A stretch of DNA of 64,000 nucleotides from positions 368 through 64,367 of the forward strand of contig CALWHJ010000002.1 in assembly GCA_944380355.1 (NCBI GenBank), read 5' to 3'. A model generated the notes under the pieces. The model did not search any database. It worked only from the letters and a program-made list of their open reading frames with translations, and was not told the DNA's origin. The stretch's first letter is position 1; every line of letters starts with the position of its first letter. Shown in pieces: positions 44,871 to 63,936 of this stretch. Made by a program: the position numbers and the translations under genes. This DNA comes from an uncultured Christensenellaceae bacterium. Its GTDB lineage: Bacteria > Bacillota > Clostridia > Christensenellales > UBA3700.

Positions 44871-45215
44871 GGGGCTGTCCCGGATTCGATGGGGAAGAGA
44901 GTAAGGTATAAGCACGTCGAAGGCTCGGCTTCGTAAAAACGGAAACTTAAAATTAAACGCAAATAACAACAAACAATTGGCTTTCGCTGCCTAACAGCAA
45001 GCCTGTCGACCTAAGACTCCACGGCTTAGTCATCGGCATCAGTTAGTGGACCAGGGTCGGGCGCCCACGCCTTTAACGTCCGACGCCATCTAAAGGCTCG
45101 CCAAACTACCCTCCGCGGATAGAGAGTATAAGGGACAAATATATGTCCGATAAACGTGTAGAAAGTGTCTTATGAACTTTTTCAGACAGGGGTTCAACTC
45201 CCCTCAGCTCCACCA
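44871..45215 (+). ncRNA. ssrA: transfer-messenger RNA (tmRNA)
   Basis: 5' GGGGCTG pairs with 3' CAGCTCC-ACCA (G3:U pair); GGATTCGA and T-arm GGTTCAACTCC; tag reading frame 44959-44994 = ANNNKQLAFAA*. Confidence 0.92.
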
Positions 45216-45430
45216 ATCGCAAACAAAATCGAACCTGATTTTGTTTGCTTTTTTATTTGCTATTGCAAGAGAGCAGCAGTATTAAAGGCAATCCGATTGT
45301 TAGTTGGGTTGCCTTTTGCCTATATAGATATTGATACATTTAATAAAGTTAAAGAGTTATTTAAGTGTGTGCTTGTTGGCTGAGCGAAGCGAAGCCTCTC
45401 GTATTATACAAGTGGACGTCGTGGTGCCAT
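45213..45430 (+). repeat. about 218-bp repeat unit U1 (tmRNA 3' flank), candidate att region
   Basis: Recurs as 55110-55254 plus 59342-59425 (copy U2, split by an inserted element); both copies end in GTCGTGGTGCCAT. Confidence 0.85.
45219..45254 (+). terminator. tmRNA terminator (copy T1 of a triplicated hairpin)
   Basis: GCAAACAAAATC-gaacct-GATTTTGTTTGC plus T6. Confidence 0.85.
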
Positions 45431-45873: not shown

Positions 45874-46380
45874 ATGTATAAAGCAAAAAGAATAAGCAAA
45901 AGAATAAACATTAGTTTAATAATTGTTTCTATAATATTGCTAATATTAGTAATGTTTTTTTCTCAGGCAGATTTGGCATACGCTCAAACTGCATCCTATA
46001 AATTGGGGGCTGTGAATTATGAAGGTAGCCGTAATTATTGCAGATATGATCTAATGATTCAAGCGACAGGAATTGAAGATGGTGTTATTACTGATACGCG
46101 AGATTTCAAAATTTATCTAGAAGGTGAGAGTTGCAAAAGAAACATTTTTACAACTTTTACATATGATTTAAAGTTTACTCTTTATAAAGATGGTGTTTAT
46201 AATAACGAAGTTTCTATTTATTTTAAAATAGACGATAAAGATGATGTGCCGGGTAGCATTAAGGTTATATTTAGTGGACCTTTTGATAATGGTGATTATA
46301 AATTAAAAGTTAAAGGAATAATATATTCAAATGATGATGAAAATATAAATGGAGAATATTATTTCACAATAGATAAGTAA
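45874..46380 (+). CDS. hypothetical secreted or membrane-anchored protein, first gene of the ABC cluster
   Basis: 168-aa ORF; signal anchor then AYAQT; GGAGGG RBS. Confidence 0.55.
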   Translation: MYKAKRISKRINISLIIVSIILLILVMFFSQADLAYAQTASYKLGAVNYEGSRNYCRYDLMIQATGIEDGVITDTRDFKIYLEGESCKRNIFTTFTYDLKFTLYKDGVYNNEVSIYFKIDDKDDVPGSIKVIFSGPFDNGDYKLKVKGIIYSNDDENINGEYYFTIDK

Positions 46381-46437
46381 AGTTAAATAAAGATGGCCAC
46401 ATTATTTTTATTTTAGGGAGTAAATCATTTAATATCG

Positions 46438-47598
46438 ATGTCAAGCATATTTTTATTATCATTAAAAAAGCTAAAAGAAAATATTAATCATTCGATAGTT
46501 TTCGTAATATGCATAGTTTTACTATGCATATTGATTATATTGCTTGGTAATATATGTATATATATGCAATTTAATGTAAGGTGCATAGTATTGGAAGATG
46601 TTGCGGAAAATGGTCTAGATATAGAAATAAGGGTAACTAAAAACACAAAAAAACTGTCAACTGAACATATTGAGTACGCAATTGATAGAATTGAGGAAAT
46701 AAGTGATGAGTTTGTATTTTCTGCGCGTACAAATTCTGAAGTACAGCTAAATGGTAAAATAATTGATTGCAAGCCATATTTCTCTTATGGAATGTATGAT
46801 GTGCAGGTATTACGCACCGCTGATACAAGCAAAACAAACAATGGTAAAGATTATATATGGTTGGCAGAATCAATCGAAGGATATGAAGTAGGGCAACAAA
46901 TTAATGTGACCATAGATGGTGTCGAAGAGAAATTGACGATAAAGGGAATAGTCGTCGGGGATATATCCTATGTGGATTATGTCCATATGAACATACAAAG
47001 TATTTGTGGCAACAATCTTTCAAAAGATATGGATTGGAGTAAAGTTAAAGAGTTATATGCTACAATTGACGATATATCAAAAAATTTGAGAATAGACGAT
47101 GGATATACAGAATATATCATATCATCCTCAATAATAGGTTCTTACAATTATCTCAATGTTCTAAACATATTTTGTAGTGGCGTTTGCATCTGCCTTATTG
47201 CGATTGTAATGGCATTATCCGTTACAGGATTAATTAATACTGTAAAAATAAATACAAACATAAATCAAAAATTTTTTGCTATGTTGAAGACTCAGGGAGC
47301 AGATAATAAGGCAATTATGTTGTATTATTTTTATCAATATCTAATTTATATTATCATAGGGGTGACGATTGCAAGCATAGTTTCTGCTATTATATTGCAA
47401 TTATCATTACAAAATATATTGCAAATATTTTTCGGATTGCTAGGATATACTAATGAAAGTTTTATTATAGGTTTCTGTTGGTGGCTTCCGCTTATATGTA
47501 TTGCTGTGATGGTTTTGGTGTGTTTGTTGGTGGCAGCAAAAGAAACAAAAAGAATTTCCAAGACTGAAATAGCGACGCTATTAAAGGAGGATGTATGA
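46438..47598 (+). CDS. FtsX/MacB-type ABC permease
   Basis: 386-aa ORF; TM1, large extracytoplasmic domain, C-terminal FtsX region (FAMLKTQGADNKAIM plus 3 TM). Confidence 0.75.
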   Translation: MSSIFLLSLKKLKENINHSIVFVICIVLLCILIILLGNICIYMQFNVRCIVLEDVAENGLDIEIRVTKNTKKLSTEHIEYAIDRIEEISDEFVFSARTNSEVQLNGKIIDCKPYFSYGMYDVQVLRTADTSKTNNGKDYIWLAESIEGYEVGQQINVTIDGVEEKLTIKGIVVGDISYVDYVHMNIQSICGNNLSKDMDWSKVKELYATIDDISKNLRIDDGYTEYIISSSIIGSYNYLNVLNIFCSGVCICLIAIVMALSVTGLINTVKINTNINQKFFAMLKTQGADNKAIMLYYFYQYLIYIIIGVTIASIVSAIILQLSLQNILQIFFGLLGYTNESFIIGFCWWLPLICIAVMVLVCLLVAAKETKRISKTEIATLLKEDV

Positions 47599-49025
47599 AA
47601 ACAAAAGAAGCATTATTTTTGGCAAAACTTAACTTGACTACGTCAAAAAAAATAAATCGCATTATAGTTTTCATGCTATCCGTAAGCATGATAATAATTA
47701 TACCTGTTTTTGTATTATGGATAAGCGTAAATGTATCCATAAACAACAAAATAAATTCAGTTCCGTATATGTTGTATTCTCAAGTGCAGATGAAAGATTA
47801 CAGAATAGAAACGGCAAATGAAGATAGGAAAATTTCAGGTTTTGAAAATATAAACAAATTTGAAAATATAGACTCTAAAATTGTATATGAAAGATATAAT
47901 TTACCGTGTTCCCCTCAATATTATAATGTCACTATGAGTGTGGATGGAAAAAAATATGATTTGAGTGAAAGTGTTTTTTCTTATAATATAATTGATATAG
48001 ACAAAAGCTCATATAATTTCCCTTATAATTTAAATACAATAGGCGATATATTTGTTGATAGTTGCGACGCTTCTTTTGACGAAACAGGGAAAAAGCAAGT
48101 TGTATTATCTCAAATAGTATTGGATGCGTTCAATCTTACCTCAACTGATGTATACGGCAATACGATAAGCATTTATATTTCATCTTCGCACATAGAAGGA
48201 TATTTATGTTATGAATACAAAGTCGTGGGCATAATCAAAAGAGAAATCAGTGAATTATATGACGAAAGCGGGAGTTATATGGATAGCGAAATTTTCTTTT
48301 GCAGTAGCAATGTCTATAAAGACGGAAATGCTGTATTAAAACCCACCATGACGGGGCAAGGGTATGAATATAAATATTTGAATATAGAGGATAAAGAAAT
48401 GCTTAACGAAGAGTATATGATGCTCGGCATAGGAAGCGATATTTATGCAAAAGATAGTTATGCTTCTACCTGCATATATCTTGAAGAAAGTAATTATGCT
48501 ATCCTGTCCTCTCTTATCACCTCTTTGCAGAATAGAGGTATATACACAGAAAATTCTACTATTTATAATAATTATAAAAAGTTGTATGATGTATCAAATA
48601 TATTAACTTTTATCCTTGGAATAGTCGGGGGAGTCTCTTTTATAATAACATTACTATATTACTATCTAAATCTTAAATTCAGTATTTATAAAAGAAGGCA
48701 TTTTTTAACTATAATAAGAGCGTTGGGAGGCCAAGATTGCGATATTCCCAAAATTCATATGTTGCAATCAAATATTCTTTGCGCTAAAGCAGCACTTATA
48801 TTTGCAGTAATAGGTGGTGCATTATGTTGGTTGATTAAATATGTGATAAATGCAATGATATCTATTAATCAAATTCCAATTTCTATTACGATTTCGCCGT
48901 GGATAATCTTAGCCAGTATAATAACAATGATTGTAATTATGTTTGCTATTACGAATTTGATTGCTTTAATTTGTTCTCGAAAGCTATCCAAACAGCCTAT
49001 AATGAGTATTCTCAAAACACAGTAA
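47595..49025 (+). CDS. FtsX/MacB-type ABC permease (second)
   Basis: 476-aa ORF; same topology; FtsX region IIRALGGQDCDI; AGGAGG RBS; 4-nt overlap upstream. Confidence 0.75.
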   Translation: MKTKEALFLAKLNLTTSKKINRIIVFMLSVSMIIIIPVFVLWISVNVSINNKINSVPYMLYSQVQMKDYRIETANEDRKISGFENINKFENIDSKIVYERYNLPCSPQYYNVTMSVDGKKYDLSESVFSYNIIDIDKSSYNFPYNLNTIGDIFVDSCDASFDETGKKQVVLSQIVLDAFNLTSTDVYGNTISIYISSSHIEGYLCYEYKVVGIIKREISELYDESGSYMDSEIFFCSSNVYKDGNAVLKPTMTGQGYEYKYLNIEDKEMLNEEYMMLGIGSDIYAKDSYASTCIYLEESNYAILSSLITSLQNRGIYTENSTIYNNYKKLYDVSNILTFILGIVGGVSFIITLLYYYLNLKFSIYKRRHFLTIIRALGGQDCDIPKIHMLQSNILCAKAALIFAVIGGALCWLIKYVINAMISINQIPISITISPWIILASIITMIVIMFAITNLIALICSRKLSKQPIMSILKTQ

Positions 49026-49035
49026 GGAGTTTAAC

Positions 49036-49701
49036 ATGATAAAAATTGAAAATTTAAGTAAAGTATATGGCGAAGGAGAAAGTAAGGTAATTGCTTTGGA
49101 TAACATTTCATTTGAGCAAAAAGAGCAAGAGAAATTTATTGCTATTATAGGCAAATCGGGGAGCGGGAAATCAACTTTGTTGAATATAATAGGAGCATTG
49201 GAAAAAGCTACTTCTGGAGATGTCCAAATTGATAGTGTAAATATATTAGCACTAAATGAAAAAGAGCGAGCGGTTTTTCGTAGTAAAAAAATAGGATATA
49301 TTTTTCAGGCTTTCTATTTGGAGTCGGAATTTAGTGTCCTTGAAAATGTTGAATTGCCGTTATTGATTGCAGGTGTAAACAAAAAAGACAGAGAGATAAA
49401 AGCAAAAGAATATATTACAAAACTAGGACTCGAAAGTAAGATTTACGAAAAAGTAAAAAATTTGTCTGGCGGACAAAAACAGAGAGTTGCGATAGCCAGA
49501 GCTCTTGTTAAAGAGCCTTCTGTCTTGTTGGCAGATGAGCCTACGGGTAATTTGGATAGCGCTAACGGTCAAGAAGTAATGCAAATATTGAAAAAAATAG
49601 CTGAAAGCGGTAGGACAGTATTGCTTGTAACGCACAATATACAAGATGCGCAAATTGCTGATAAGATAATAGAATTGCAAGACGGTAAAATATCTAATTG
49701 A
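49036..49701 (+). CDS. ABC transporter ATP-binding protein (MacB/LolD-like)
   Basis: Walker [10 protein letters not shown]; signature [15 protein letters not shown]; Walker B LLADEPT. Confidence 0.92.
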
Positions 49702-49786
49702 ATATGATTGCGATGAACAATATATGTGGTTTGCATCATATTTTAAAAACTAAGGATATACTGCCGACTAATAAAAGAGGTAGATT

Positions 49787-50575
49787 ATGAAAAAGAAAAC
49801 ATTGTTAATTATAAGTCTGATATGTATAGCAGTATTAATATTTGCGTTAGCGTTTGTGAGCTGTAAAGACGATTTTGAGCCGCATTATTTTACCGAATAC
49901 GAAAGCGGGTACTTTAGATATGCTGCATATTCATTGATGGACGGAAAAAGATGTGCCGTTATTGTAGGGTTGACGGAAAGCGGGCTTGAACAAGAAGCTT
50001 TGATTTTCCCTATTGAACTTGACGGAAGAGAAGTATACGGAATAGGGTATGAAACACAAGCTAATACCATTTCCCCTTGGGCACCTATTATCGAGGTAGG
50101 AAGCCTTGAAAGCAAAAATCTGAAAAAACTGTTTTTCTTGAAAAATCCTATAATAGATATTGGAACTAATGTTGATTTTTCAAGCAAAATAAAGGCAGTC
50201 TATTGGAATTTAGAAGAACAGTATCAAGGATGGGGATATAATCCTTTGATTACTACGCGAAGCTATTATAAAAAATTCAATAATGAAGTTTTTAAAAACG
50301 TAATCTTTGCAAACGTAATGTATATGTACAATTACGAAAACAGCCCCAATGAAGGGTGCTACTGGATAGACAGTTACGACGAAGGACTTATCACCTTTAT
50401 GCCGCCTATGCCACAACGAGAGGGATATTATTTCGTGGGTTGGTATAAAGAACCAGAATGTATAAACAAATGGGACTTTGATGTAGACAAAACGGGAAAA
50501 GAAATTAAAATGGATAACAATCTCGACTCGGAATACGAAGGGATTTACCTATATGCAAAGTGGGTAGAGATTTAA
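49787..50575 (+). CDS. lipoprotein with a C-terminal Listeria-Bacteroides-type repeat
   Basis: Lipobox FVSC; C-terminal REGYYFVGWYKEPECINKWDFDVD...LYAKW. Confidence 0.6.
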   Translation: MKKKTLLIISLICIAVLIFALAFVSCKDDFEPHYFTEYESGYFRYAAYSLMDGKRCAVIVGLTESGLEQEALIFPIELDGREVYGIGYETQANTISPWAPIIEVGSLESKNLKKLFFLKNPIIDIGTNVDFSSKIKAVYWNLEEQYQGWGYNPLITTRSYYKKFNNEVFKNVIFANVMYMYNYENSPNEGCYWIDSYDEGLITFMPPMPQREGYYFVGWYKEPECINKWDFDVDKTGKEIKMDNNLDSEYEGIYLYAKWVEI

Positions 50576-50602
50576 CATCAATAACTAAAGGGGGAACAAA
50601 AG

Positions 50603-50797
50603 ATGAAAAGTAAAGTGCAAAAGATATTTATAGCATTTTTATCAAGTGTATTTGCTTTTGTGTTGGTATTGAGCGCATTCGTTGTGTTCGATACGACTTT
50701 GACGGCGTATGCGTCGGTAGAAGAAGATGGATTAGTAGTATCGGAATTAGACGCGGGAAGTATGTTGCGGGCGGAGATTTGTCGCACAATACGGTAA
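50603..50797 (+). CDS. small signal-peptide-bearing ORF (secreted peptide candidate)
   Basis: 64 aa; GGGGGA RBS; signal peptide ending AYA then SVEEDGLVVSELDAGSMLRAEICRTIR. Confidence 0.4.
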   Translation: MKSKVQKIFIAFLSSVFAFVLVLSAFVVFDTTLTAYASVEEDGLVVSELDAGSMLRAEICRTIR

Positions 50798-50954
50798 TCA
50801 ACGCATTGAGAAGATTTAACAAAAATGTTGCTAAGTGGTGCAGATAAAAATAAATAAGCCAAAAAGCATTTCAAAAAAGCCTTATGTGACGAATAGTGTC
50901 GTGACTTTTTCTTGTAGAGCGGATATAATTGAGTTGTAATCAGGGAGGTGCAAT

Positions 50955-51446
50955 ATGACTTTCGGAGAGAAACTCAAAAAATTAAGAACAGATAAGAATC
51001 TTACTCAGGAAGAATTGGCTGACGCGATTTTCGTAACGAGAACGGCTATATCAAAATGGGAGACAGATAAAGGTTATCCCAGCATAGACAGTTTGAAGGT
51101 ATTGTCTAACTATTTCGATGTCAGTATAGACGAATTAATTTCAGATGCAGACGTCGAAAATAAAAAACAACTGGAAAATAAGAAAAGCAAAAAGTTTTAC
51201 GCAACAGCCATTTGTTTTCTTATCGCGACAGTAGTTTTTACATTGCTGGCATATATACTGGAAATAAAATATCTTACCGTGGGAAGTTGCTTGTGTATGA
51301 TAGGATATGTAATATTTGCAATTCTTACAAAGCCTAAAGATAAAAGGCTGCAGATGCGTAAAGTAATCGTTCCCTATATCATAACGAGGGCAGTGTTGTT
51401 TGTAATTGTAGTAAGTATTACGATATATACCCTAGTTACTTTATAA
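50955..51446 (+). CDS. XRE-family HTH regulator with C-terminal TM helices
   Basis: FGEKLKKLRTDKNLTQEELADAIFVTRTAISKWE; three predicted TM helices; GGGAGG RBS. Confidence 0.8.
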   Translation: MTFGEKLKKLRTDKNLTQEELADAIFVTRTAISKWETDKGYPSIDSLKVLSNYFDVSIDELISDADVENKKQLENKKSKKFYATAICFLIATVVFTLLAYILEIKYLTVGSCLCMIGYVIFAILTKPKDKRLQMRKVIVPYIITRAVLFVIVVSITIYTLVTL

Positions 51447-51478
51447 TAAGACAGAGGGAAAGTAACTCTGAAAGATAA

Positions 51479-51505
51479 AGAAAGCAGCGTGTCCCGCTGC
51501 TTTCT
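51479..51505. terminator. hairpin between convergent genes
   Basis: AGAAAGCAGCG-tgtcc-CGCTGCTTTCT; T-rich flank mainly on the minus strand. Confidence 0.5.
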
Positions 51506-51514
51506 TAGTCAGGC

Positions 51515-52378
51515 TCAGTTTTTCAACGCTCGCCAATCTTTTATGTGGTGGATAGCTATGCCGAAGCAGTCAGGGATTTTGCCCCTTAAGAGGTCTAGCT
51601 GTCGGTACATATAATCTGCGCCCTCTTCATAAAACGTAACAATATCTTTGTTCTCTCCGGTTTCAACGCTGAAGTTAAAAGGTTTATCTACAGTAGCGGC
51701 ATAGTTTGCTTCGTTTTGGGCTACGTCGTATATCGCCTCGGCGCTGTCGCGGTAGCTCATTACCGTTACGCGCGAAGAATTGTCTATTATAAATTGGTAG
51801 GCAGGTTTTGTAGTGCCTTTATAAGTAACCTCGTCTTCTAGCCAAAAGGGAATATCGTATTCTATCCACAGGTCGGGGTAGCTTTCTTTAATCTGAGCAC
51901 TCAGGCAGACGAAGGAAGTGATAAGCTCGTTACGTCTATCGCTGAATTGAGGATTCTGATGCGGCTCTATATCGAGGTGTATGCCGTCAAACGGGTACTC
52001 GTTTTGGCTTTGGTAATCGAGATATTCATCTATTCGGTTTTTTAGCGACGGTATGTCTTCTATCCACTCGTAGTTGCCCTGTAACCAGAATACTTTGATG
52101 TCTCGCGAATTTGCGTCTTTGATGAAGTCGCTTGTTTTTTGAGAAAAGGACGAAGTATAATAATATATTTCGTTAACGCCTTGGTCTTCGGCAAAGTCGA
52201 GATAAGTCGAGTCTATACGGTTGTCCCACCACCATACGCCCAAAGTCGGAGCGGGCTGAGAATTTGAAGGAGGGGAGGTAACCGTCTTTTTGTAGATAAC
52301 TATACCGAGTGCCGTTCCTAATATTGCAAGAGCGACAATTCCTGCTACTATAGAAAAGGTTAAGACGCTTTTTTTCAT
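51515..52378 (-). CDS. membrane-anchored hypothetical protein (possible TIM-barrel glycoside-hydrolase-like)
   Basis: 287-aa ORF; N-terminal TM anchor; AGGAG RBS; functional assignment is weak. Confidence 0.55.
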   Translation of the reverse strand: MKKSVLTFSIVAGIVALAILGTALGIVIYKKTVTSPPSNSQPAPTLGVWWWDNRIDSTYLDFAEDQGVNEIYYYTSSFSQKTSDFIKDANSRDIKVFWLQGNYEWIEDIPSLKNRIDEYLDYQSQNEYPFDGIHLDIEPHQNPQFSDRRNELITSFVCLSAQIKESYPDLWIEYDIPFWLEDEVTYKGTTKPAYQFIIDNSSRVTVMSYRDSAEAIYDVAQNEANYAATVDKPFNFSVETGENKDIVTFYEEGADYMYRQLDLLRGKIPDCFGIAIHHIKDWRALKN

Positions 52379-52525
52379 TTTTCATCTCCTGTATGTTTTA
52401 TTATAGACGTACAGATACGGATAGTCAATAACCACATTTGACGCAACACAGTGCGTTAGGTATGAAAGCCTTGAAAATTCTGCGTATTTGCGCTATAATA
52501 TCAATGCGTTTTTAATGGAGATTGT

Positions 52526-52936
52526 ATGGAAATAAAATTGTTTGACAAGTTACCCGACGAGGCAAAAGATATAAGAGTTACCGTTTTTGTGGAAGAGCAG
52601 GGTTTCAACGAGGAATTCGACAGCGTAGACGACATTGCTACGCATATTGTTATGTATAACCGTGAAAGGCCTGTCGCAACGTGTAGGTTTTATATTAAGG
52701 ACGGTAGTTACCTTTTGGGCAGAATTGCCGTAATAAAAGAATACCGAGGCAAACACATAGGGGCATTGCTTATAAGCAAGGCTGAGGAAGAAATAAAGAA
52801 AAATGGCGGCAGAAAAGCAGTAATTCACGCGCAGACAAGAGCAAAGGACTTTTATCTCAAACAAGGATATATCGACAGCGGCAAAGAAGATATGGAAGAA
52901 GGTTGTCCTCACGTATGGCTATTCAAAAATCTCTGA
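52526..52936 (+). CDS. GNAT-family N-acetyltransferase
   Basis: 136-aa ORF; motif A IAVIKEYRGKHIGALLISKAEE. Confidence 0.85.
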   Translation: MEIKLFDKLPDEAKDIRVTVFVEEQGFNEEFDSVDDIATHIVMYNRERPVATCRFYIKDGSYLLGRIAVIKEYRGKHIGALLISKAEEEIKKNGGRKAVIHAQTRAKDFYLKQGYIDSGKEDMEEGCPHVWLFKNL

Positions 52937-53026: not shown

Positions 53027-53103
53027 GGAGGCATAGCCCAGCTGGTTAGAGCGCTACGTTGACATCGTAGAGGTCATAGGTTCGAGTCCCATTGTCTCCA
53101 CCA
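53027..53103 (+). tRNA. tRNA-Val (anticodon GAC)
   Basis: Hand-folded cloverleaf: acceptor GGAGGCA/TGTCTCC, anticodon arm CTACG-TTGACAT-CGTAG, T-loop TTCGAGT, encoded CCA; one non-canonical pair in each of the D and T stems. Confidence 0.8.
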
Positions 53104-53142
53104 ATAGCAAACAAAGTCGAACCTGATTTTGTTTGCTTTTTT
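53101..53142 (+). repeat. terminator-hairpin repeat copy T2 (left direct repeat of the cassette)
   Basis: CCAATAGCAAACAAAGTCGAACCTGATTTTGTTTGCTTTTTT; 41/42 identical to 55110-55151. Confidence 0.85.
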
Positions 53143-53163: not shown

Positions 53164-53192
53164 TTGTAACAATTAGTGATAAATGCTATAAT
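53164..53192 (+). promoter_or_regulatory. candidate promoter of the cyclase-SIR2 cassette
   Basis: TTGTAA (53164-53169), 17 nt, TGC-TATAAT (53187-53192, extended -10); it lies inside the track ORF 5' extension. Confidence 0.55.
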
Positions 53193-53223
53193 TAAGCAAA
53201 TATCGAATAGGAAAGAGAATAAC

Positions 53224-53961
53224 ATGTTTGAAGAAAGATTTATAGCATTTGTAGATATATTAGGATTTAAGGAAATAGTAAAGAAAGCAAAAAATGATAT
53301 TAATTTTCAAAATGACATTTCTGCCGTATTAAATTATATTGCAAAAATTAGAAATGATAATTATCACGGGTACCTATCAAAATATGGGATTTATAACGAT
53401 GTTTCTGTTTTTTCGGACAGTATTGTAATTTCATACCCCTGTAACTGCTCTGATGGAGCTGGCTTATTTCATTTGCTTATGGATTTAATTTTCATGTGTT
53501 TTGACCTAATAAATCATGGTATTTATGTTCGTGGTGGCATTACAGTTGGAGAGATTATACATGATCAAAATATAAGTTGGGGACCCGCATTTATTGCTGC
53601 ATATGAATTGGAAGAAAATCAAGCTGTTTATCCGCGAATTATTGTGGATAAGAATGCGATTGAAATAGCGAAAGCGATATATAAGCGAAAATTTCCTTAT
53701 GATAAAGATGGCGATTATTTAGATAAACTTATTGCGCTTGATGAGGACGGAATCTATTATTTAGATTATCTTTCACAATACAGCGAATTTGATGATATTT
53801 CTGATTATATTATTTGTTTAAAGCTTATTCGAGAAAATATTGTGTATAATATACAAAATTCTTCAATTACAAAAATAAAAGATAAATATGATTGGTTTGC
53901 AAAATATTTTAATAGAACTATTGCAAACTTACCATTTACACATAATTTAAAAAATATATAA
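53224..53961 (+). CDS. minimal class III nucleotidyl-cyclase / GGDEF-like palm-domain protein (candidate signal synthase or sensor)
   Basis: Collinear with the cyclase core: FIAFVDILGFKE (first metal Asp), VSVFSDSIVISY (second Asp), YVRGGITVGEII, SWGPAFIAAYELEENQAVYPRIIV; uncharacterised C-terminal about 100 aa. Confidence 0.6.
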   Translation: MFEERFIAFVDILGFKEIVKKAKNDINFQNDISAVLNYIAKIRNDNYHGYLSKYGIYNDVSVFSDSIVISYPCNCSDGAGLFHLLMDLIFMCFDLINHGIYVRGGITVGEIIHDQNISWGPAFIAAYELEENQAVYPRIIVDKNAIEIAKAIYKRKFPYDKDGDYLDKLIALDEDGIYYLDYLSQYSEFDDISDYIICLKLIRENIVYNIQNSSITKIKDKYDWFAKYFNRTIANLPFTHNLKNI

Positions 53962-53982
53962 AAATTTAAAAAGGTTCTGTTT

Positions 53983-55020
53983 ATGAATAATAATTTAGAA
54001 GAAATAATGAAAAAGCGCCCTCATGTGGTTATTTTGGGTGCAGGGGCAAGTTGCGCAGCTATACCGAATGGCGATAAAAATGGGCGAAAAATTTCTGCAA
54101 TGAATGGTTTTATTAAAAAACTTGGATTATCTGATTTATTGTCACGAGTAAATCTTGAAACGAAGTCAGACAATCTCGAAGATATATACATGGAATTGGA
54201 AGGAAGAAGTGGTCAAGAATTAGATTGTGCAGTTGTCAAAAAAGAGTTAGAACAAAAGATATTTGATTACATGAAAGAATATGAGATTCCAGATGAACCA
54301 ACCATATATGATTATCTTATATTAAGTTTGACAAATAAAGATTTAATTGCGACATTTAATTGGGATCCTCTTTTAGTGCAAGCGTATTTGAGAGTTGGAA
54401 AATATACTAGAAATCTGCCGTTTTTAGCGTATTTGCACGGGAATGTTGCTGTTGGTTATTGTGAACAAGATAATATAATTGGAATTGCATCTGGGAGATG
54501 CAAGTGTGGGAAATTGCTTAGGCCGATTCAATTGCTTTATCCCATAAAGAAGAAAAATTACCAGGCTGATATTGCGATTGAAAAATTCTGGAAAGAATTG
54601 CAGAATAATTTTGAAAGGGCATATATGGTTACAATTTTTGGATATAGTGCTCCGCAAAGTGATATTGAAGCATTGTCTATGTTAAAGGTGGCATGGGGAG
54701 AACCTGAACAGCGCTCCCTTGAGGAGATAGAAATAATTGATATACGAGATGAGAGTGAAGTGATAGAATCGTGGAAAGATTTTATTCATACACATCATTA
54801 CTCTTATCATACGGATTTTTTTACATCTACACTCGGGAAATTCCCGCGAAGAAGTTGCGAGGCAACCTATGATAGATTGATGAAATGTAGATTTTTAGAT
54901 GGCAGTAAAGGATTTAAAAAGGGGATGACATTTGATGAAATAATAAAGAAACTAATTCCTTTGCTTAATGAAGAAATTGAAAAGAAAGAAACGGGCGAAA
55001 TGCTTAGTCAACTTTATTAA
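53983..55020 (+). CDS. SIR2-like (SIR2_2/DHS-like NAD-binding) protein, candidate NADase effector
   Basis: VVILGAGASCAAIP (Rossmann loop), IATFNWDPLL (TTNYD-like, Asn126), YLHGNV (His152), TIFGYSAPQSDIEA; 21 nt downstream of the cyclase-like gene. Confidence 0.7.
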   Translation: MNNNLEEIMKKRPHVVILGAGASCAAIPNGDKNGRKISAMNGFIKKLGLSDLLSRVNLETKSDNLEDIYMELEGRSGQELDCAVVKKELEQKIFDYMKEYEIPDEPTIYDYLILSLTNKDLIATFNWDPLLVQAYLRVGKYTRNLPFLAYLHGNVAVGYCEQDNIIGIASGRCKCGKLLRPIQLLYPIKKKNYQADIAIEKFWKELQNNFERAYMVTIFGYSAPQSDIEALSMLKVAWGEPEQRSLEEIEIIDIRDESEVIESWKDFIHTHHYSYHTDFFTSTLGKFPRRSCEATYDRLMKCRFLDGSKGFKKGMTFDEIIKKLIPLLNEEIEKKETGEMLSQLY

Positions 55021-55109
55021 GAATATGGCATTTAATGGTGATTGATTAAGACTTCCAGTAGTTGTACATTATGATTTTAGGGTGATTTAGAGCCCTTTTG
55101 TAGCTTGTG

Positions 55110-55254
55110 CCAATCGCAAACAAAGTCGAACCTGATTTTGTTTGCTTTTTTATTTGCTATTGCAAGAGAGCAACATTAATAAAGGCAATCCGATTGTTAG
55201 TCGGGTTGCCTTTTGCTTATATGGATATTAGCACATTTAATTAAGTCAAAGAGT
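55110..55254 (+). repeat. repeat unit U2, left part (includes terminator copy T3 at 55116-55151)
   Basis: About 90% identical by eye to 45213-45357; interrupted at GTCAAAGAGT. Confidence 0.85.
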
Positions 55255-55866
55255 ATCTACAATAGATAAATACTTATTTTGCATACTTTTTCTTCTTCTC
55301 CATATAGTAGACGGATTAAGAGAAAGCATATTAGCTTGTTGTACAAAGCCTATACCTTGCATATAGCAGTTTAGTGTTTCTTTTTCGCCTTTATTTAGTT
55401 TTAGCTTTCTCATTATCTTATCGTATTTTGTATAATCTCCTTTGTATTCTTGCTCAAATTCTGTATAGGGTTCTTCACTTTTATTCAAGTCTTCTATACT
55501 ACCTGTATATCTTTTTAGTTTCCATTCTTCATATAGTAAATGGCAAAGGTGTTTATAACACAATCTCTTTATTGCAAATATCTTATTACTCTTTTTATCT
55601 ATACAGGTATCGTATACGGATTTACCCATATAGTCTAATAAGAATAATGCAGCACTTTGTGCTAAGTCATAGCTATCTGTAAGAATATATCCGGGTATAT
55701 CTTTGTAATCTATATCTCTAGCAAGATTAGCATACATTCTATGTAGATGTTTATGCCCACACATAAACTTTAACGATTGCAGAGCAAGTAATTCTCCCAT
55801 ACGCATAACATTGTCAGGTGAGATTATTTCCTCAAATACTTCATAACCTTTTTTGTTGTTTTTCAT
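55246..55866 (-). CDS. sigma-70 region-4-like / HTH protein of the element
   Basis: GGAGG RBS before ATG 55866; C-terminal HTH EKETLNCYMQGIGFVQQANMLSLNPSTIWRRRKS; stop codon lies in the att core. Confidence 0.6.
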   Translation of the reverse strand: MKNNKKGYEVFEEIISPDNVMRMGELLALQSLKFMCGHKHLHRMYANLARDIDYKDIPGYILTDSYDLAQSAALFLLDYMGKSVYDTCIDKKSNKIFAIKRLCYKHLCHLLYEEWKLKRYTGSIEDLNKSEEPYTEFEQEYKGDYTKYDKIMRKLKLNKGEKETLNCYMQGIGFVQQANMLSLNPSTIWRRRKSMQNKYLSIVDTL

Positions 55867-56092
55867 TTTCTTTACCTCCGAAGTTAATTTGCCTTTCGGC
55901 AGGCAGAGAAGGAGCATAAGACGATGAATAGAAAACAACAATAAAAGTTAATATCCAAAAGTCAACGGGACAAAGAAAAATCCTTGCTTAATACCCAATA
56001 TACATTGAATACCAAACAAGGATATTTCGACCGTTTACTTTTGAGAGGCATATGCGACAATGCCAAACGAAAAGGCAAAGACTACGGAGGAA

Positions 56093-59341: not shown

Positions 59342-59425
59342 GTCAAAGCGTTATTCAGACGTGTGCTTGTCTGGCGGAGCGAAGCGACGCCACTTGTCTA
59401 TGACAAGCACACGTCGTGGTGCCAT
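59342..59425 (+). repeat. repeat unit U2, right part
   Basis: Matches 45351-45430; contains the nested hairpin GTGTGCTTGTC-TGGCG...CGCCA-...GACAAGCACAC. Confidence 0.8.
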
Positions 59426-59538: not shown

Positions 59539-59745
59539 ATGGATATTAAACTTTTAGTCGGGAAGAGAGTTCGAGAATTAAGAAATGACATTGGAATTAG
59601 CCAAGAGGAACTTGCTGATTTGGCTGATTTGGATAGAACGTACATAACAAGCGTTGAATGTGGTAAAAGAAATATTTCAATTGTGAATATTGAAAAACTT
59701 GCAAATGCATTACAAGTTTCATTGAAAGAGTTTTTTAGTTTTTAA
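59539..59745 (+). CDS. restriction-modification controller (C) protein, XRE HTH
   Basis: 68-aa HTH (ISQEELADLADLDRTYITSVECGKRN) directly upstream of the endonuclease; AAGGAG RBS. Confidence 0.85.
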   Translation: MDIKLLVGKRVRELRNDIGISQEELADLADLDRTYITSVECGKRNISIVNIEKLANALQVSLKEFFSF

Positions 59746-59763
59746 AACATAGGGGATAACATA

Positions 59764-60591
59764 ATGAATACACCTTTACTTGATAAATTATATCAGAAAT
59801 ACGATATTAAAAACTTGGAATATGGAAAAGTGCACGATAAACTCGGTGATGCTTATGAGGAATACTGCATTCTGATTTTGAGCAACAAAGAACATCTTGA
59901 TGCTTTTCAGAAAAATGAACAAATTGATAGTGTTGAGTTTGAGATTTTTAAGAGTCTTTTAACAAAAGCAGAAATCAATAACATTACAGAGATTGCTGAA
60001 ATTAAAGCTACGAATATTGTTCCTCATAGAAAAACTCACGGTAACGCCAAAACAGACGTTATTGCTACTATTAAATATAAAGACGGAACTGAAATTAAAC
60101 TTCCAATAAGCAGCAAACAATCCTATGTTGCCAAAGTTGCAGTTTCTGAGTTTGATATTGACACAATTTGCGATGAAGCAGAAATTGACAATGATAGAGT
60201 TAGAGAATTGATGCGAAAGTTTCAAACTGCAAAATCAGCTAAAGGCTTAAATATTGCGGAACAATCGGAATTAAGAGAAGCGTTAGTTCCATATGCGAAA
60301 AAATTAGTTCGTTGGGCAATAACTGGAAGTCCAGACGAGAATCCAAATGATGTAATTTTCCCTAAACTTTTAGTTAAATTTAAGATTTTTAAACCAAAAG
60401 ATAGGTATAATATTAAGGTTAGCAACGGAGAATTGCATTATATCAGCCATTCAATCTACACCATTGATGAATATGTAGATTTAACAATCTATGATAAAAA
60501 TGGCAATATCAAAAGAGGTGGCTTTGGAACTGGATTATCTTGGACATATGCTTCTGGCTCTGGTGGAAGAAAAATTCAATTTAAGGCATAA
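59764..60591 (+). CDS. type II restriction endonuclease, possibly MspI-family
   Basis: Operon position between C and M genes; KTD...(17 aa)...SSK spacing resembles my recollection of the MspI D99/N117/K119 site; C-terminal GFGTGLSWTYASGS; family call unverified. Confidence 0.6.
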   Translation: MNTPLLDKLYQKYDIKNLEYGKVHDKLGDAYEEYCILILSNKEHLDAFQKNEQIDSVEFEIFKSLLTKAEINNITEIAEIKATNIVPHRKTHGNAKTDVIATIKYKDGTEIKLPISSKQSYVAKVAVSEFDIDTICDEAEIDNDRVRELMRKFQTAKSAKGLNIAEQSELREALVPYAKKLVRWAITGSPDENPNDVIFPKLLVKFKIFKPKDRYNIKVSNGELHYISHSIYTIDEYVDLTIYDKNGNIKRGGFGTGLSWTYASGSGGRKIQFKA

Positions 60592-60595
60592 GTTG

Positions 60596-60625
60596 TTGAC
60601 TTTAAGTCACTTATCGAGGTATAAT
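60596..60625 (+). promoter_or_regulatory. methyltransferase promoter with embedded C-box-like site
   Basis: TTGACT (60596-60601), 18 nt, TATAAT (60620-60625); GACTTTAAGTC at 60598-60608; shares AAGTCACTTA with 59494-59503; ATG only 10 nt after the -10. Confidence 0.55.
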
Positions 60626-60635
60626 ACTAATTATT

Positions 60636-61397
60636 ATGAACAAAGTATATTTTCAGGAAGAAAATGCGACTATATTATGTGCAGATACGTTAACGACACG
60701 TTTGATAGAAGATAACAGCATAGATTTAATTGTCACTTCGCCGCCGTATAACCTTGATATAGACTATAAGTCTCACGATGATGCAAAGCCTTATGATGAA
60801 TATTTAAAATTTACTAAATCATGGTTACGAAAATGCTTAAAATGGCTAAAAAAAGATGGTAGAATGTGCTTAAATATTCCGCTAGATAAAAATAAGGGCG
60901 GACACCAAAGCGTTGGTGCAGATTTAATAGAAATTGCTAAAAGTGTTGGCTATAAATATCATTCCACAATCATTTGGAACGAAGGCAATATTTCAAAAAG
61001 TTCTGCATGGGGTTCTTGGATGAGCGCATCTTGTCCATATGTGATTGCGCCTGTTGAACTAATAGTATTGTTATATAAAGATTCATGGAAGAAAACTAGT
61101 GGTACAAAAAAATCCGATATAACAAGAGATGAATTTGTAGCGTGGACTAATGGGGTATGGACTTTTCGAGGTGAAAGTAAACGTAAAATAGGACACCCTG
61201 CACCATTTCCAGTGGAATTGCCAAAGAGGTGTATTAAACTGTTTAGTTTTGTTGAGGATACGATATTAGATCCTTTTATGGGGAGTGGCTCTACCGTAAT
61301 TGCAGCAAAACAAAATAATCGAAAAGGAATCGGAATCGATAAGGATCTTGAGTATTGTGAACTGGCAATGCACAGGGTTCTTAAGGAGACAAAATAA
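60636..61397 (+). CDS. beta-class amino DNA methyltransferase (likely N4-cytosine)
   Basis: Motif IV TSPPYN near the N-terminus and motif I DPFMGSGST near the C-terminus; SPPY favours m4C. Confidence 0.88.
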   Translation: MNKVYFQEENATILCADTLTTRLIEDNSIDLIVTSPPYNLDIDYKSHDDAKPYDEYLKFTKSWLRKCLKWLKKDGRMCLNIPLDKNKGGHQSVGADLIEIAKSVGYKYHSTIIWNEGNISKSSAWGSWMSASCPYVIAPVELIVLLYKDSWKKTSGTKKSDITRDEFVAWTNGVWTFRGESKRKIGHPAPFPVELPKRCIKLFSFVEDTILDPFMGSGSTVIAAKQNNRKGIGIDKDLEYCELAMHRVLKETK

Positions 61398-62731
61398 TGA
61401 AAGAGTATACATACATAGATTTATTTTCTGGACCTGGTGGACTCTGCACTGGTTTTATTAGTGAGGGATTTATTCCACGAATCGCAGTGGAATGGAGTGA
61501 CACTACGGTTATAACTTATGCAAAATCTCACAATGCAGAAATATACGAATTAAAGACATTATTGGATAATCTAGGGCATCTTGAGGATGTTTTAGTAAAA
61601 AATAAGCGTACATGTTTGATTCATGGCGATATAAATCAAGTTTCAAATAACATGATTTGTGAAATTTTGAAAAAGAAATTTGGCGAAAATACTGTCGATG
61701 TTGTCACGGGAGGTGCACCATGTGAGAGTTTTTCTATGGCAGGAAAACGGCTTGAAGATGATGACCGAAACGACTTATTTTCTAACATTCTGCGTATTGC
61801 CCATGCAGTGCAAGCAAAGTTTACATTGTTTGAGAATGTGCCGGGATTATTAACAAAAAAACGCGACGGCAAAAAAGGTGGTCAAATTGAATATGTCTTT
61901 CATGAGTTTGAGCGCGTAAACCCTGAAACTGGTGTGTTCTATCGTCTTGCAAGCAAAAATATTTCCGATTTCAAATGTGTAGCTGCAGATTATGGCACAC
62001 CTCAAAAGAGAGAAAGGATATTCATTGTCGGTTGCAGTAGTAAATATTCGAGAAATCCATTTGTTTATCCCGAAAAAACGCACGGACCGGGTAGAAAATA
62101 TGATTATGTAACAGTGGAAGACGCTTTTAGATACTTGCCTATAATAAAAAGTGGAGAAGGCTATGAAATGATGCCCTATACTCCGAATTACGAAGAAGAT
62201 TATATAAACGGAATTATAACTGAAGCTGCTTACAATTATTATAGATTCATTTTTGATCCAACGCACTGTGGAAATGCGGGTTATTCTCCAAATGTTGTTA
62301 CATTCCATAAGGCATTGAATCACAATCCTAAAATGGTTAGAAGATTGCACGAAATTCGTCCTGGAGAGGGTATGCAATCCGCAGTTGAACGTTTGATTGC
62401 AGAAGGCAAAGAAGATTTGGTTAAGGAAGTATTTCCTAAAAAGATATATTCTTCACGCAATCGTAGATTAAGGTTAAATGAGCCTAGTTATACAGTAACA
62501 TCGCACTGCTTGGATGAAATGATTCATCCGATTTATGATAGGCAACCTACACCGAGAGAAGTTGCGAGATTGCAAGCGTTTCCTGATTGGTACTATATAA
62601 ATGGACCTTATGTAAAATTTCATAGCGACCCGGAACAAGATAAATATGAACAAGTTGGAGACGCTATCCCCGTTTTAATGGCTAAGGCATTAGCTAAAAG
62701 CATGAGAAAAGCATTAGATATTTTAAAATGA
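61397..62731 (+). CDS. dcm: DNA (cytosine-5)-methyltransferase
   Basis: Motifs FSGPGGL (I), PCESFS (IV), ENVPGL (VI), QKRERIFIVG (VIII), GDAIPV (X). Confidence 0.93.
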   Translation: MKEYTYIDLFSGPGGLCTGFISEGFIPRIAVEWSDTTVITYAKSHNAEIYELKTLLDNLGHLEDVLVKNKRTCLIHGDINQVSNNMICEILKKKFGENTVDVVTGGAPCESFSMAGKRLEDDDRNDLFSNILRIAHAVQAKFTLFENVPGLLTKKRDGKKGGQIEYVFHEFERVNPETGVFYRLASKNISDFKCVAADYGTPQKRERIFIVGCSSKYSRNPFVYPEKTHGPGRKYDYVTVEDAFRYLPIIKSGEGYEMMPYTPNYEEDYINGIITEAAYNYYRFIFDPTHCGNAGYSPNVVTFHKALNHNPKMVRRLHEIRPGEGMQSAVERLIAEGKEDLVKEVFPKKIYSSRNRRLRLNEPSYTVTSHCLDEMIHPIYDRQPTPREVARLQAFPDWYYINGPYVKFHSDPEQDKYEQVGDAIPVLMAKALAKSMRKALDILK

Positions 62732-62745
62732 AAGGAGTTTATTAT

Positions 62746-63936
62746 ATGGAACATAACGGTATTATTTTATCGGAAGAAGAAAAAGAAATTATCGAGATAG
62801 AAAATCAAGAGGAAGAAGAGAGCATTAGTTTGGAAAGATATGCCTTCAACTCCTTTAGAATCGAACGAAGCATTAGAGACATTTTGAATTGGGTAGAAAA
62901 AGGCAAAATTATTATTCCTGAATTCCAAAGGGATTTTGTATGGAACTATAATCAATCAAGCCGTTTTGTTGAATCCGTACTTTTGGGATTACCTATACCA
63001 GACTTTTTTATGTTTAGGTTAATTGATAATAAAGGACAGTTCGAGAGATATATCTTAATTGATGGATTACAAAGATATACAACTATTAAACAATTTGTAG
63101 AAGGTAGATTTGTGCAAGGTGCCACAAATAGAAACTTCAAGATAAATAATAAATCGAGTCAATGGTACAATAAAACTTATGCAAAATTAGATACCAATGA
63201 CCAAGATTTTTTTCAAGACTATTCTTTAAAGATAAATGTTTTCGATTCAGTAGAAGATTCAGAGCGAATGCAAAAATTATATATGACAACTATTTTTGAA
63301 AGAATAAATACTGGCTCCACCAAATTAAGTGCACAAGAAGTCAGGAATGCCATTTTTACTGGAGATGTAGTACGAGAAATACGTGAAAATGTAAAAAATA
63401 AAGAATTTTCTCTTTTGCTACAAGCTGATTTAAATAAATATTCTCAACGTTGCAAAAATGAAGAGTTTTATTTAAGATTATTAGCGTATTATCATGTGTA
63501 TTTACAGATAACTAAAAAATCAAGTTTTTATATTGATGATGACAAAGAATCAAAGATTTCATCATCTAAAGATTTAATGCTTTGCAATTTCTTGTTCTAT
63601 TGCAATAAAAAAGATATTGACTTTGCTGATTACAATAAAAAACTTTTATATGCAATAAGTGTGATAGTTAAATTTGATAACACAGCTTTTTGTACAGTAA
63701 AACGTGATGAAGATATCATTTCTAATCATATACACGAGGTGTTTTCTGAAGCACTTGTTATAGCTTTAATGACAGGCAGTGAAATTAATATTACAAAAGA
63801 ACAATTTGAAAAAGCTAAGATAAAAATTTGGAGGGATCAGGAAAAATACATAGAGTTTTTTCATACAACAACTGAATTATTACATGTCCAAAAAAGAATT
63901 GATACTATAAAAAAAGTTCTTACTGGGGAAATATGA
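62746..63936 (+). CDS. DUF262 (ParB-like nuclease / GmrSD N-terminal-type) protein
   Basis: IIIPEFQRDFVW and LIDGLQRYTTI motifs; AGGAG RBS supports ATG 62746. Confidence 0.85.
   Translation: MEHNGIILSEEEKEIIEIENQEEEESISLERYAFNSFRIERSIRDILNWVEKGKIIIPEFQRDFVWNYNQSSRFVESVLLGLPIPDFFMFRLIDNKGQFERYILIDGLQRYTTIKQFVEGRFVQGATNRNFKINNKSSQWYNKTYAKLDTNDQDFFQDYSLKINVFDSVEDSERMQKLYMTTIFERINTGSTKLSAQEVRNAIFTGDVVREIRENVKNKEFSLLLQADLNKYSQRCKNEEFYLRLLAYYHVYLQITKKSSFYIDDDKESKISSSKDLMLCNFLFYCNKKDIDFADYNKKLLYAISVIVKFDNTAFCTVKRDEDIISNHIHEVFSEALVIALMTGSEINITKEQFEKAKIKIWRDQEKYIEFFHTTTELLHVQKRIDTIKKVLTGEI

Follow-up and report, generated by a model that had tools for sequence, protein, structure and literature searches.

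The window analysed here is a 64,000-nucleotide stretch of DNA from an uncultured Christensenellaceae bacterium (assembly GCA_944380355.1, contig CALWHJ010000002.1, positions 368 to 64,367 of the forward strand), and our subject is a short cassette of two genes within it, which we call A and B. An initial annotation, made by a model from the letters of the sequence, had proposed that this pair is a new two-gene defence system in which a cyclase-like protein, A, activates a SIR2-like effector, B. Both open reading frames (ORFs) exist as it described them, 21 nt apart, and the motifs that it quoted are conserved positions in the two protein families. The cassette and its immediate flanks contain the following features.

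53027-53103, + strand: tRNA-Val (GAC), found by ARAGORN and by Rfam RF00005 (59.8 bits), in the 64-nt repeat family D2.
53101-53142, + strand: left 42-nt repeat, also in family D2, which holds a terminator-like hairpin (53106-53137) followed by a T run.
53164-53192, + strand: promoter-like site, TTGTAA-17 nt-TGnTATAAT, with an extended -10 element (10/12 matches plus the TG in a consensus scan).
53224-53961, + strand: gene A, 245 aa.
53983-55020, + strand: gene B, 345 aa.
55110-55151, + strand: right 42-nt repeat, with a terminator-like hairpin at 55116-55145; it is the start of the 145-nt repeat D1 (55110-55254).

We prefer the 245-aa form of A that begins at ATG 53224 to the longer ORF that begins at GTG 53176, because the ATG is preceded by a ribosome-binding site (AGGAAAGAG), because the -10 box (53187-53192) falls 3′ of the GTG, and because alignments to A homologues begin at residue 1-2. 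The pair had been credited with its own extended -10 promoter, and a site of that description is indeed present at 53164-53192, but the region has no excess of such sites (11, with 13.2 expected from shuffled sequence), and so by its consensus match it is a plausible candidate promoter of an A-B operon. Terminator-like hairpins number three against 0.8 expected in a terminator scan, and the same scan of the region found none between A and B. With one promoter-like site, terminators on both flanks and none between the genes, A and B thus form a single bicistronic unit that runs from promoter to terminator.

The fold of B was expected to be of the SIR2_2 type, and this is borne out by structure prediction but not by the Pfam sequence model. 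The top 50 Foldseek matches of its AlphaFold2 model (predicted local distance difference test score, pLDDT, 80.4) in the PDB are all sirtuins or defence SIR2 proteins, with a best E-value of 1e-8; by TM-score the SIR2 subunit of SIR2-HerA (8wld) ranks first, at 0.50, and the matches include EcThsA. By sequence, B finds nothing at E ≤ 1 among the Pfam SIR2, SIR2_2 and AbiH models and only noise-level matches in PADLOC and NCBIfam, and a B-family profile finds nothing relevant among PDB sequences; some databases nevertheless label B homologues 'SIR2 family' or 'SIR2-like domain'. Across 41 family sequences the residues G19-A-G21-x-S23, N126-W-D128, H152-G-N and G220-Y-S222...D227 are invariant, as are three cysteines (C160, C173 and C175) in an insert in the small domain. 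B is accordingly best described as a predicted SIR2/sirtuin-fold protein whose NAD-binding and catalytic motifs are intact. It had been noted to lack a SLOG, SAVED or CARF sensor, and we agree: none of these, nor a cyclic nucleotide (cNMP)-binding domain, is recognisable in this 345-aa single-domain protein. A word-indexed search returned 4,170 matches to B homologues, and a tblastn search of plasmids gave further homologues (64% identity in Stenotrophomonas, 44-52% in Vibrio and Legionella).

Protein A fared similarly, in that the Guanylate_cyc assignment expected from its motifs stands by structure and fails by the Pfam model. Its AlphaFold2 model is of high quality (pLDDT 91.6; predicted template modelling score, pTM, 0.90), and the top 50 Foldseek matches in the PDB are all catalytic domains of class III adenylyl or guanylyl cyclases, with a best E-value of 5e-5 and TM-scores of up to 0.65 normalised on the target; among viral structures Foldseek gave weak cyclase-domain matches, none at E ≤ 0.001. 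Searches of Pfam, NCBIfam and PADLOC gave noise-level matches, Guanylate_cyc not being reached at E ≤ 1 in Pfam, and an A-family profile found no cyclase among PDB sequences, its one weak match being YvfG, to the C-terminal helices (E 0.048). The predicted domains of A are a divergent class III cyclase-homology (palm) fold at residues 1-180 and a conserved helical C-terminal extension at residues 190-240 that carries K221 and W224. Near-invariant positions among 134 family members are F9-x-D11-I-L-G-F15, F63-S64-D65, R103-G104, G109, H113, G120, Y127, E130, P137-R138, K221 and W224, with D11 conserved in 96%, D65 in 98% and R103 in 100%.

A scan of the whole 1.86 Mb of collected loci gave no canonical cyclase domain with which A could be aligned. 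Class III cyclases were therefore represented by VC1 and IIC2, whose sequences were checked against the PDB (1CJK/1AZS for VC1). An hhalign comparison of the A profile with VC1 is collinear over 131 columns, at E 0.039 and a probability of 1.3%, and it places D11, D65 and R103 of A on D396, D440 and R484 of VC1; with an alignment so marginal and of such low probability, these residue equivalences are indicative only. In VC1 the three residues are metal and triphosphate ligands. The comparison with IIC2 aligned 32 columns only. N1025 and R1029, in helix alpha4 of IIC2, are the transition-state Asn/Arg pair of class III cyclases, and the same low-probability alignment puts I124 and E128 of A at these positions, where the family consensus is GPAMxxAYELE. 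Because the metal and triphosphate residues are kept while the transition-state Asn/Arg is replaced, we take A to be, by its model, a probable divergent protein of cyclase/palm fold that is similar to the 'C1 half' of a cyclase; it is not a canonical class III cyclase.

The A family is very large and has no Pfam or NCBIfam model. A word-indexed search gave 1,051 matches to A homologues, and an exhaustive profile search at E ≤ 0.001 gave 13,257 clusters at 50% identity; A also matches phrog_23933, a PHROG without known function, at 7e-39. Unusual architectures occur among the family members P0241, P0301, P0324 and P0354. P0241 is a tandem A-A fusion in which the N-terminal copy has lost the second Asp, which suggests that A may form a dimer with an asymmetric active site; P0354 carries an N-terminal extension of ~90 residues, and other rare fusions join A to TPR repeats in one case and to a four-helix membrane domain (4-TM) in another. 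AbiB (251 aa) was considered as an identity for A and rejected, since the fold predicted for AbiB is HEPN. Searches with tblastn of A and B against GenBank phages gave no match, and against plasmids they gave matches annotated 'hypothetical protein' only.

Whether A and B constitute a system depends on how often they are found together. We sampled 80 genome loci with A homologues 24-50% identical to ours (tblastn, many phyla, ±8 kb) and 80 metagenome loci with B homologues 47-67% identical (±5 kb). A B homologue lies near A at 1/80 of the former (L043), and there it is 4.3 kb away with genes between, while an A homologue lies near B at 0/80 of the latter; among viral contigs in IMG/VR (69 A loci and 16 B loci), 0/85 have both. 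Diverged partners do not appear to have been overlooked: reciprocal hmmsearch of the B profile in the ORFs of the A loci, and the reverse, recovered L043 only, and hhalign of the B profile against each neighbour of A, AbiH included, gave nothing significant. Many members have no close partner of any kind, as 33/77 A loci and 41/78 B loci have no gene of ≥100 aa on the same strand within 100 nt. Clustering of the close same-strand neighbours at 77 A loci yielded no recurrent operon partner, the largest cluster having five members of 377-447 aa. Genes of 210-213 aa that lie downstream of some A or B homologues are mutually unrelated.

Adjacency of A and B is found in a close clade, which we define by at least 59% identity for A and at least 74% for B. 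Its paired lineages are listed here, with identities to the window.

The window: A then B, gap 21 nt (reference lineage).
L169-172: A then B, gap 35 nt; A 62%, B 75%.
L081-084: B then A, gap 9-18 nt; A 67%, B 81%.
L085-088: B then A, gap 18 nt; A 64%, B 77%.

Alongside these four paired lineages, the clade has two with B only and two with A only. One B-only lineage, L180-187, is the most abundant member of the clade (176 collection blocks); its B is 83% identical to that of L169 and is flanked by HNH_5 and a Bro-N/Fic gene. In the other, L278-281, B is 87% identical to that of L081 and lies in a tight array of a Ser/Thr protein kinase, AbiH, B and UCP028583 (L278 2050-4712). The A-only lineages are L189 and L277, the latter adjoining HEPN_Cthe2314 and RES. 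Relatives that fall a little short of the clade limits (50-54% identity for A, 68% for B) are unpaired as well. Co-occurrence over both families is therefore not that of an obligate A+B system, and because pairing is rare family-wide and unpaired members occur even within the clade, A and B are for the most part not a defined two-gene system: the part of that proposal that holds is the adjacency in four lineages of a narrow clade, and the pair is absent from nearly all of both families. Furthermore, since an intact, widely spread B nearly identical to a paired B is found without A, and the reverse, each protein probably works without the other.

The neighbourhoods of both families are rich in defence genes, in agreement with the defence-island association that had been suggested; this association is qualitative, drawn from scans of neighbouring genes, from the context in the window and from low G+C. 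Immediate neighbours of A homologues include the S and M subunits of type I restriction-modification (R-M) systems, GmrSD_N, AbiEii, AbiH, AAA_21 and KAP NTPases; those of B homologues include HEPN_LA2681 (6), type I S subunits (4), RVT_1 (4), TIR_2, SEFIR and integrases. Some copies of the families are inserted inside type I R-M operons, and at L128 and L139 a B homologue directly follows the type I specificity subunit. At six metagenome loci in L129-L136, a B homologue of ~52% identity overlaps by 20 nt a downstream gene for a 495-aa TPR + HEPN_LA2681 protein (7.8e-52; e.g., L130 4998-7488), and this is a recurrent pairing that is tighter than that of B with A.

Several known systems invite comparison. 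AbiH of Lactococcus (PF14253) is a single-gene abortive infection protein, predicted to be sirtuin-like and carried on mobile elements and in defence islands (PMC13064643, a review of 2026). Like AbiH, B is a stand-alone SIR2-fold protein of ~300-350 aa found on mobile elements and in defence islands, and AbiH genes adjoin both A homologues and B homologues; however, B has no match to the AbiH model at E ≤ 1, hhalign finds no significant similarity between the B profile and an AbiH sequence, and the mechanism of AbiH is itself only predicted. DSR1/DSR2, ThsA, SIR2-HerA, SIR2-APAZ/pAgo and KomC (Kongming) share with B the SIR2 fold and the catalytic Asn/His pair. Defence SIR2 systems of this kind abort infection by depleting NAD+ (nicotinamide adenine dinucleotide). 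B differs from them in that it has no SLOG, APAZ or long C-terminal sensor domain and no HerA, TIR, pAgo or KomA/B partner in the window, and it is mostly a solo gene product of ~345 aa.

On the cyclase side, Pycsar combines PycC, a class III pyrimidine cyclase, with a transmembrane (TM) or TIR effector that has a cNMP-binding domain. A resembles PycC in its class III cyclase fold and two metal-binding Asp, and a rare member of its family has the 4-TM fusion, but A has no Guanylate_cyc or PADLOC match and no canonical Asn/Arg, B has no cNMP-binding domain, and the A family has no conserved effector partner. Panoptes, the subject of PMC12657218 and PMC12657230, consists of mCpol, a minimal Cas10-palm cyclase, and a 2TM or CARF-TM effector. 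A is likewise a small stand-alone enzyme of palm/cyclase fold in a defence locus; unlike mCpol, its structural matches are class III cyclase domains and not Cas10 or mCpol, it has no Pfam match above noise, there is no membrane or CARF effector, and its partner is a SIR2 protein that is not obligatory. The closest parallel to A is VC1, the C1 domain of mammalian adenylyl cyclase (1CJK, 1AZS chain A), which is collinear with it and also lacks the Asn/Arg pair found in C2, and the C1-C2 pseudo-heterodimer is mirrored by the tandem A-A fusion with its one degenerate copy; the similarity to VC1 is nonetheless marginal, A has an extra conserved helical C-terminal domain, and no C2-like partner is known. 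By the features tested, then, the pair is not Pycsar, Thoeris, SIR2-HerA, pAgo-SIR2, DSR, Kongming or Panoptes, and the closest analogues are AbiH or a solo defence SIR2 protein for B and a class III cyclase C1-type domain for A. The view that the pairing is unlike known systems also withstood a check against PADLOC (2023), which has no known-system match for A or B, and full-text literature searches, which turned up no account of the pair, of the A family or of the B family; nor is the pair contained in the NAR (Nucleic Acids Research) 2026 domain-centric screen.

The explanation that we prefer, and to which we give about an even chance of being correct, is that A and B are separate defence modules of one gene each, autonomous in action, which in one narrow clade share a transcript on a mobile cassette of ~2 kb. 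The analysis shows the folds, the conservation of catalytic-type residues, the anatomy of the operon, the gene neighbourhoods and the co-occurrence counts; from these we infer an anti-phage role, NAD+-cleaving (NADase) activity, nucleotide chemistry and independent action. B would be a self-contained SIR2 effector that consumes NAD+, either as a NADase or as an ADP-ribosyltransferase; infection would switch it on and it would then abort the infection, as has been shown for DSR and proposed for AbiH. We favour such a role for B on the strength of its predicted fold, the invariance of its catalytic residues and the genes around it. A, on the same explanation, may be a dimeric, divergent cyclase/palm-fold enzyme that binds nucleoside triphosphate (NTP)-Mg2+ and performs nucleotidyl transfer or cyclisation on its own; the fold, D11, D65 and R103, and the tandem fusion are the reasons for thinking that it could be a dimeric NTP- and metal-dependent enzyme. 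The pairing would then give layered, possibly synergistic protection and would involve no obligate sensor-effector circuit.

A number of observations weigh against such autonomy or against a defence role. Within the close clade the pair is co-transcribed and co-inherited where it is present: A and B are adjacent in four lineages, with gaps of 9-35 nt and in different surroundings, and their pairwise identities (57-87% for A, 74-89% for B) are congruent, both proteins grouping the four lineages alike: L081 and L085 group first, the window joins them next and L169 comes last. When unpaired relatives are added, neighbour-joining trees of A and of B disagree on the position of the window lineage. 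The adjacency has outlived one swap of gene order, and functionally unlinked neighbours usually part sooner than this. In addition, in L007 (2907-4607) and L009 (4121-5788) an A homologue of 42% identity follows an AbiH-family gene (7e-52) at a distance of 39-51 nt, a second, independent link of A to a SIR2-type protein, found in one lineage, which is suggestive but not statistically compelling. The gene calls in the related loci are crude longest-ORF calls, and, given that neither protein has a PADLOC match, it is by neighbourhood only that A and B are candidate defence genes.

Some of these observations also speak for the circuit that the initial annotation had in mind, in which infection leads A to make a nucleotide product that activates B allosterically, with NAD+ depletion and abortion of the infection as the outcome, now confined to the close clade. 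The co-inheritance of a tight pair in four lineages, with congruent divergence and in both gene orders, fits this well, as do the intact metal Asp pair of A on its cyclase fold, the intact SIR2 catalytic residues of B and the second adjacency of A with a sirtuin-like gene, AbiH; the 4-TM and TPR fusions of A moreover resemble cyclase-effector and sensor-cyclase architectures. Yet B has no identifiable ligand-sensor domain through which a nucleotide could act, some B proteins occur without A although they share 83-87% identity with paired ones, A proteins of the clade occur without B, there is essentially no co-occurrence beyond the clade, and A lacks the canonical class III transition-state Asn/Arg, so that we regard such signalling as unlikely. 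It is to the same degree doubtful that a member of the very large, unannotated family of cyclase-fold defence-island proteins has here been wired to a stand-alone SIR2 NADase to make a new nucleotide-signalling abortive-infection system; if this were true, the AbiH-A adjacency would be a second case of the same cyclase-like-to-SIR2 logic.

Coupling could also be direct, without a diffusible signal, A sensing the phage or gating B by protein contact, or B modifying A (e.g., by ADP-ribosylation). SIR2-HerA and DSR2 are under the control of protein partners, and these precedents, together with the tight operon spacing and the co-divergence of the genes, speak for contact; the same evidence of independence that disfavours signalling applies here too, however, and the conserved catalytic-type residues of A argue that it is an enzyme and not a mere scaffold, which makes direct contact distinctly improbable. 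Just as improbable, in our estimation, is that the cassette is mobile cargo outside immunity, whose products, perhaps a protein deacylase and a nucleotide cyclase, would modulate the physiology of the host or the maintenance of the element. That B finds its best E-values among bona fide protein-deacylating sirtuins, keeps cysteines where sirtuins carry their Zn module and shows more conservation across phyla than is usual in a defence gene, and that neither protein matches any PADLOC model, would all agree with such cargo, but the recurrent R-M, Abi, HEPN, TIR and retron-type reverse transcriptase neighbours, and the copies inside type I R-M operons, do not. Neighbourhoods of this kind are the mark by which defence genes are classically recognised.

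Bacterial immunity draws again and again on SIR2 NADases and on nucleotide cyclases, and if A and B were coupled they would represent a new wiring between the two. Even if they are independent, as in the explanation that we prefer, they bring to light two sizeable defence-island families that are absent from Pfam, NCBIfam and PADLOC, one a divergent class III cyclase-fold family of >13,000 clusters at 50% identity, with tandem, TPR-fused and TM-fused forms, and the other a highly conserved 345-aa sirtuin-fold family; both are candidates for single-gene defence. The novelty thus lies in two unannotated families that are built on known defence folds and combined in one clade only. The locus also illustrates that tight adjacency in one genome is insufficient to call a system, as family-wide co-occurrence here reversed the first impression.

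The setting of the cassette had been described as a tmRNA (transfer-messenger RNA) island. A mobile, AT-rich defence island is indeed present, although the cassette directly abuts the tRNA-Val gene, the tmRNA gene (44871-45215) lying 8 kb upstream. The AT-richness that had been reported for the pair is evident: the G+C content of the cassette is 31.5% (27.8% in gene A), which places it among the lowest 4% of 2-kb windows, against 43.5% to the left of the tmRNA gene and 31-34% to its right. The 42-nt direct repeats that bracket the cassette are also real, the two copies being identical at 41/42 positions, and the tmRNA gene has a third copy at its 3′ end and flank. The 145-nt repeat D1 occurs in the downstream flank of the tmRNA gene (45213-45357) and at 55110-55254, with 92% identity, and the 3′ end of the tRNA-Val gene and its downstream flank resemble those of the tmRNA gene. 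To the right of the cassette are a large serine recombinase, a Rep protein, an MspI-like R-M system and a GmrSD_N (DUF262) gene, the last two of which had been recognised earlier. The R-M module is laid out as follows.

59539-63936: helix-turn-helix (HTH) controller, MspI-like endonuclease, N4/N6 methyltransferase and C5 methyltransferase, then GmrSD_N (DUF262).

The GmrSD_N gene overlaps the preceding R-M module by 4 nt. From the repeats, the drop in G+C and the neighbouring mobile and R-M genes we conclude that the cassette sits in an array of horizontally acquired elements that have accreted at a tmRNA/tRNA site. Further repeated units are a 64-nt unit present three times, at the tmRNA gene (within 44871-45430), at the tRNA-Val gene (53079-53142) and to the right of B (within 55088-55254), and a 54-nt unit present twice (45377-45430 and 59372-59425, 80% identical). 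A 4.1-kb insertion with the large serine recombinase and the Rep gene seems to interrupt the second of the tmRNA-flank copies. The tmRNA-flank repeats look as if integrative elements had accreted in tandem at a single attachment site.

Bracketing repeats of another sort occur in one of the paired lineages. The L169 cassette is flanked by a duplicated terminator-like hairpin (1030-1062 and 3165-3197; 33 nt, 97% identical), the sequence of which is unrelated to the 42-nt repeat of the window; no bracketing repeat of this kind was found in the B-then-A loci. The two cases suggest that the cassette inserts at, or duplicates, intrinsic terminators.

Two other parts of the island may be mentioned. 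Between the cassette and the serine recombinase lies a 231-aa ORF (55246-55941, - strand) without a Pfam match. The AT-rich segment from the tmRNA gene to the tRNA-Val gene (45874-52936) appears to be a separate acquired island without an obvious defence role; judged from the translations alone it encodes two large membrane proteins and an ABC-type ATPase, and it also carries genes for an HTH membrane protein (Pfam HTH matches were obtained with the identical gene in L190) and a GNAT acetyltransferase.

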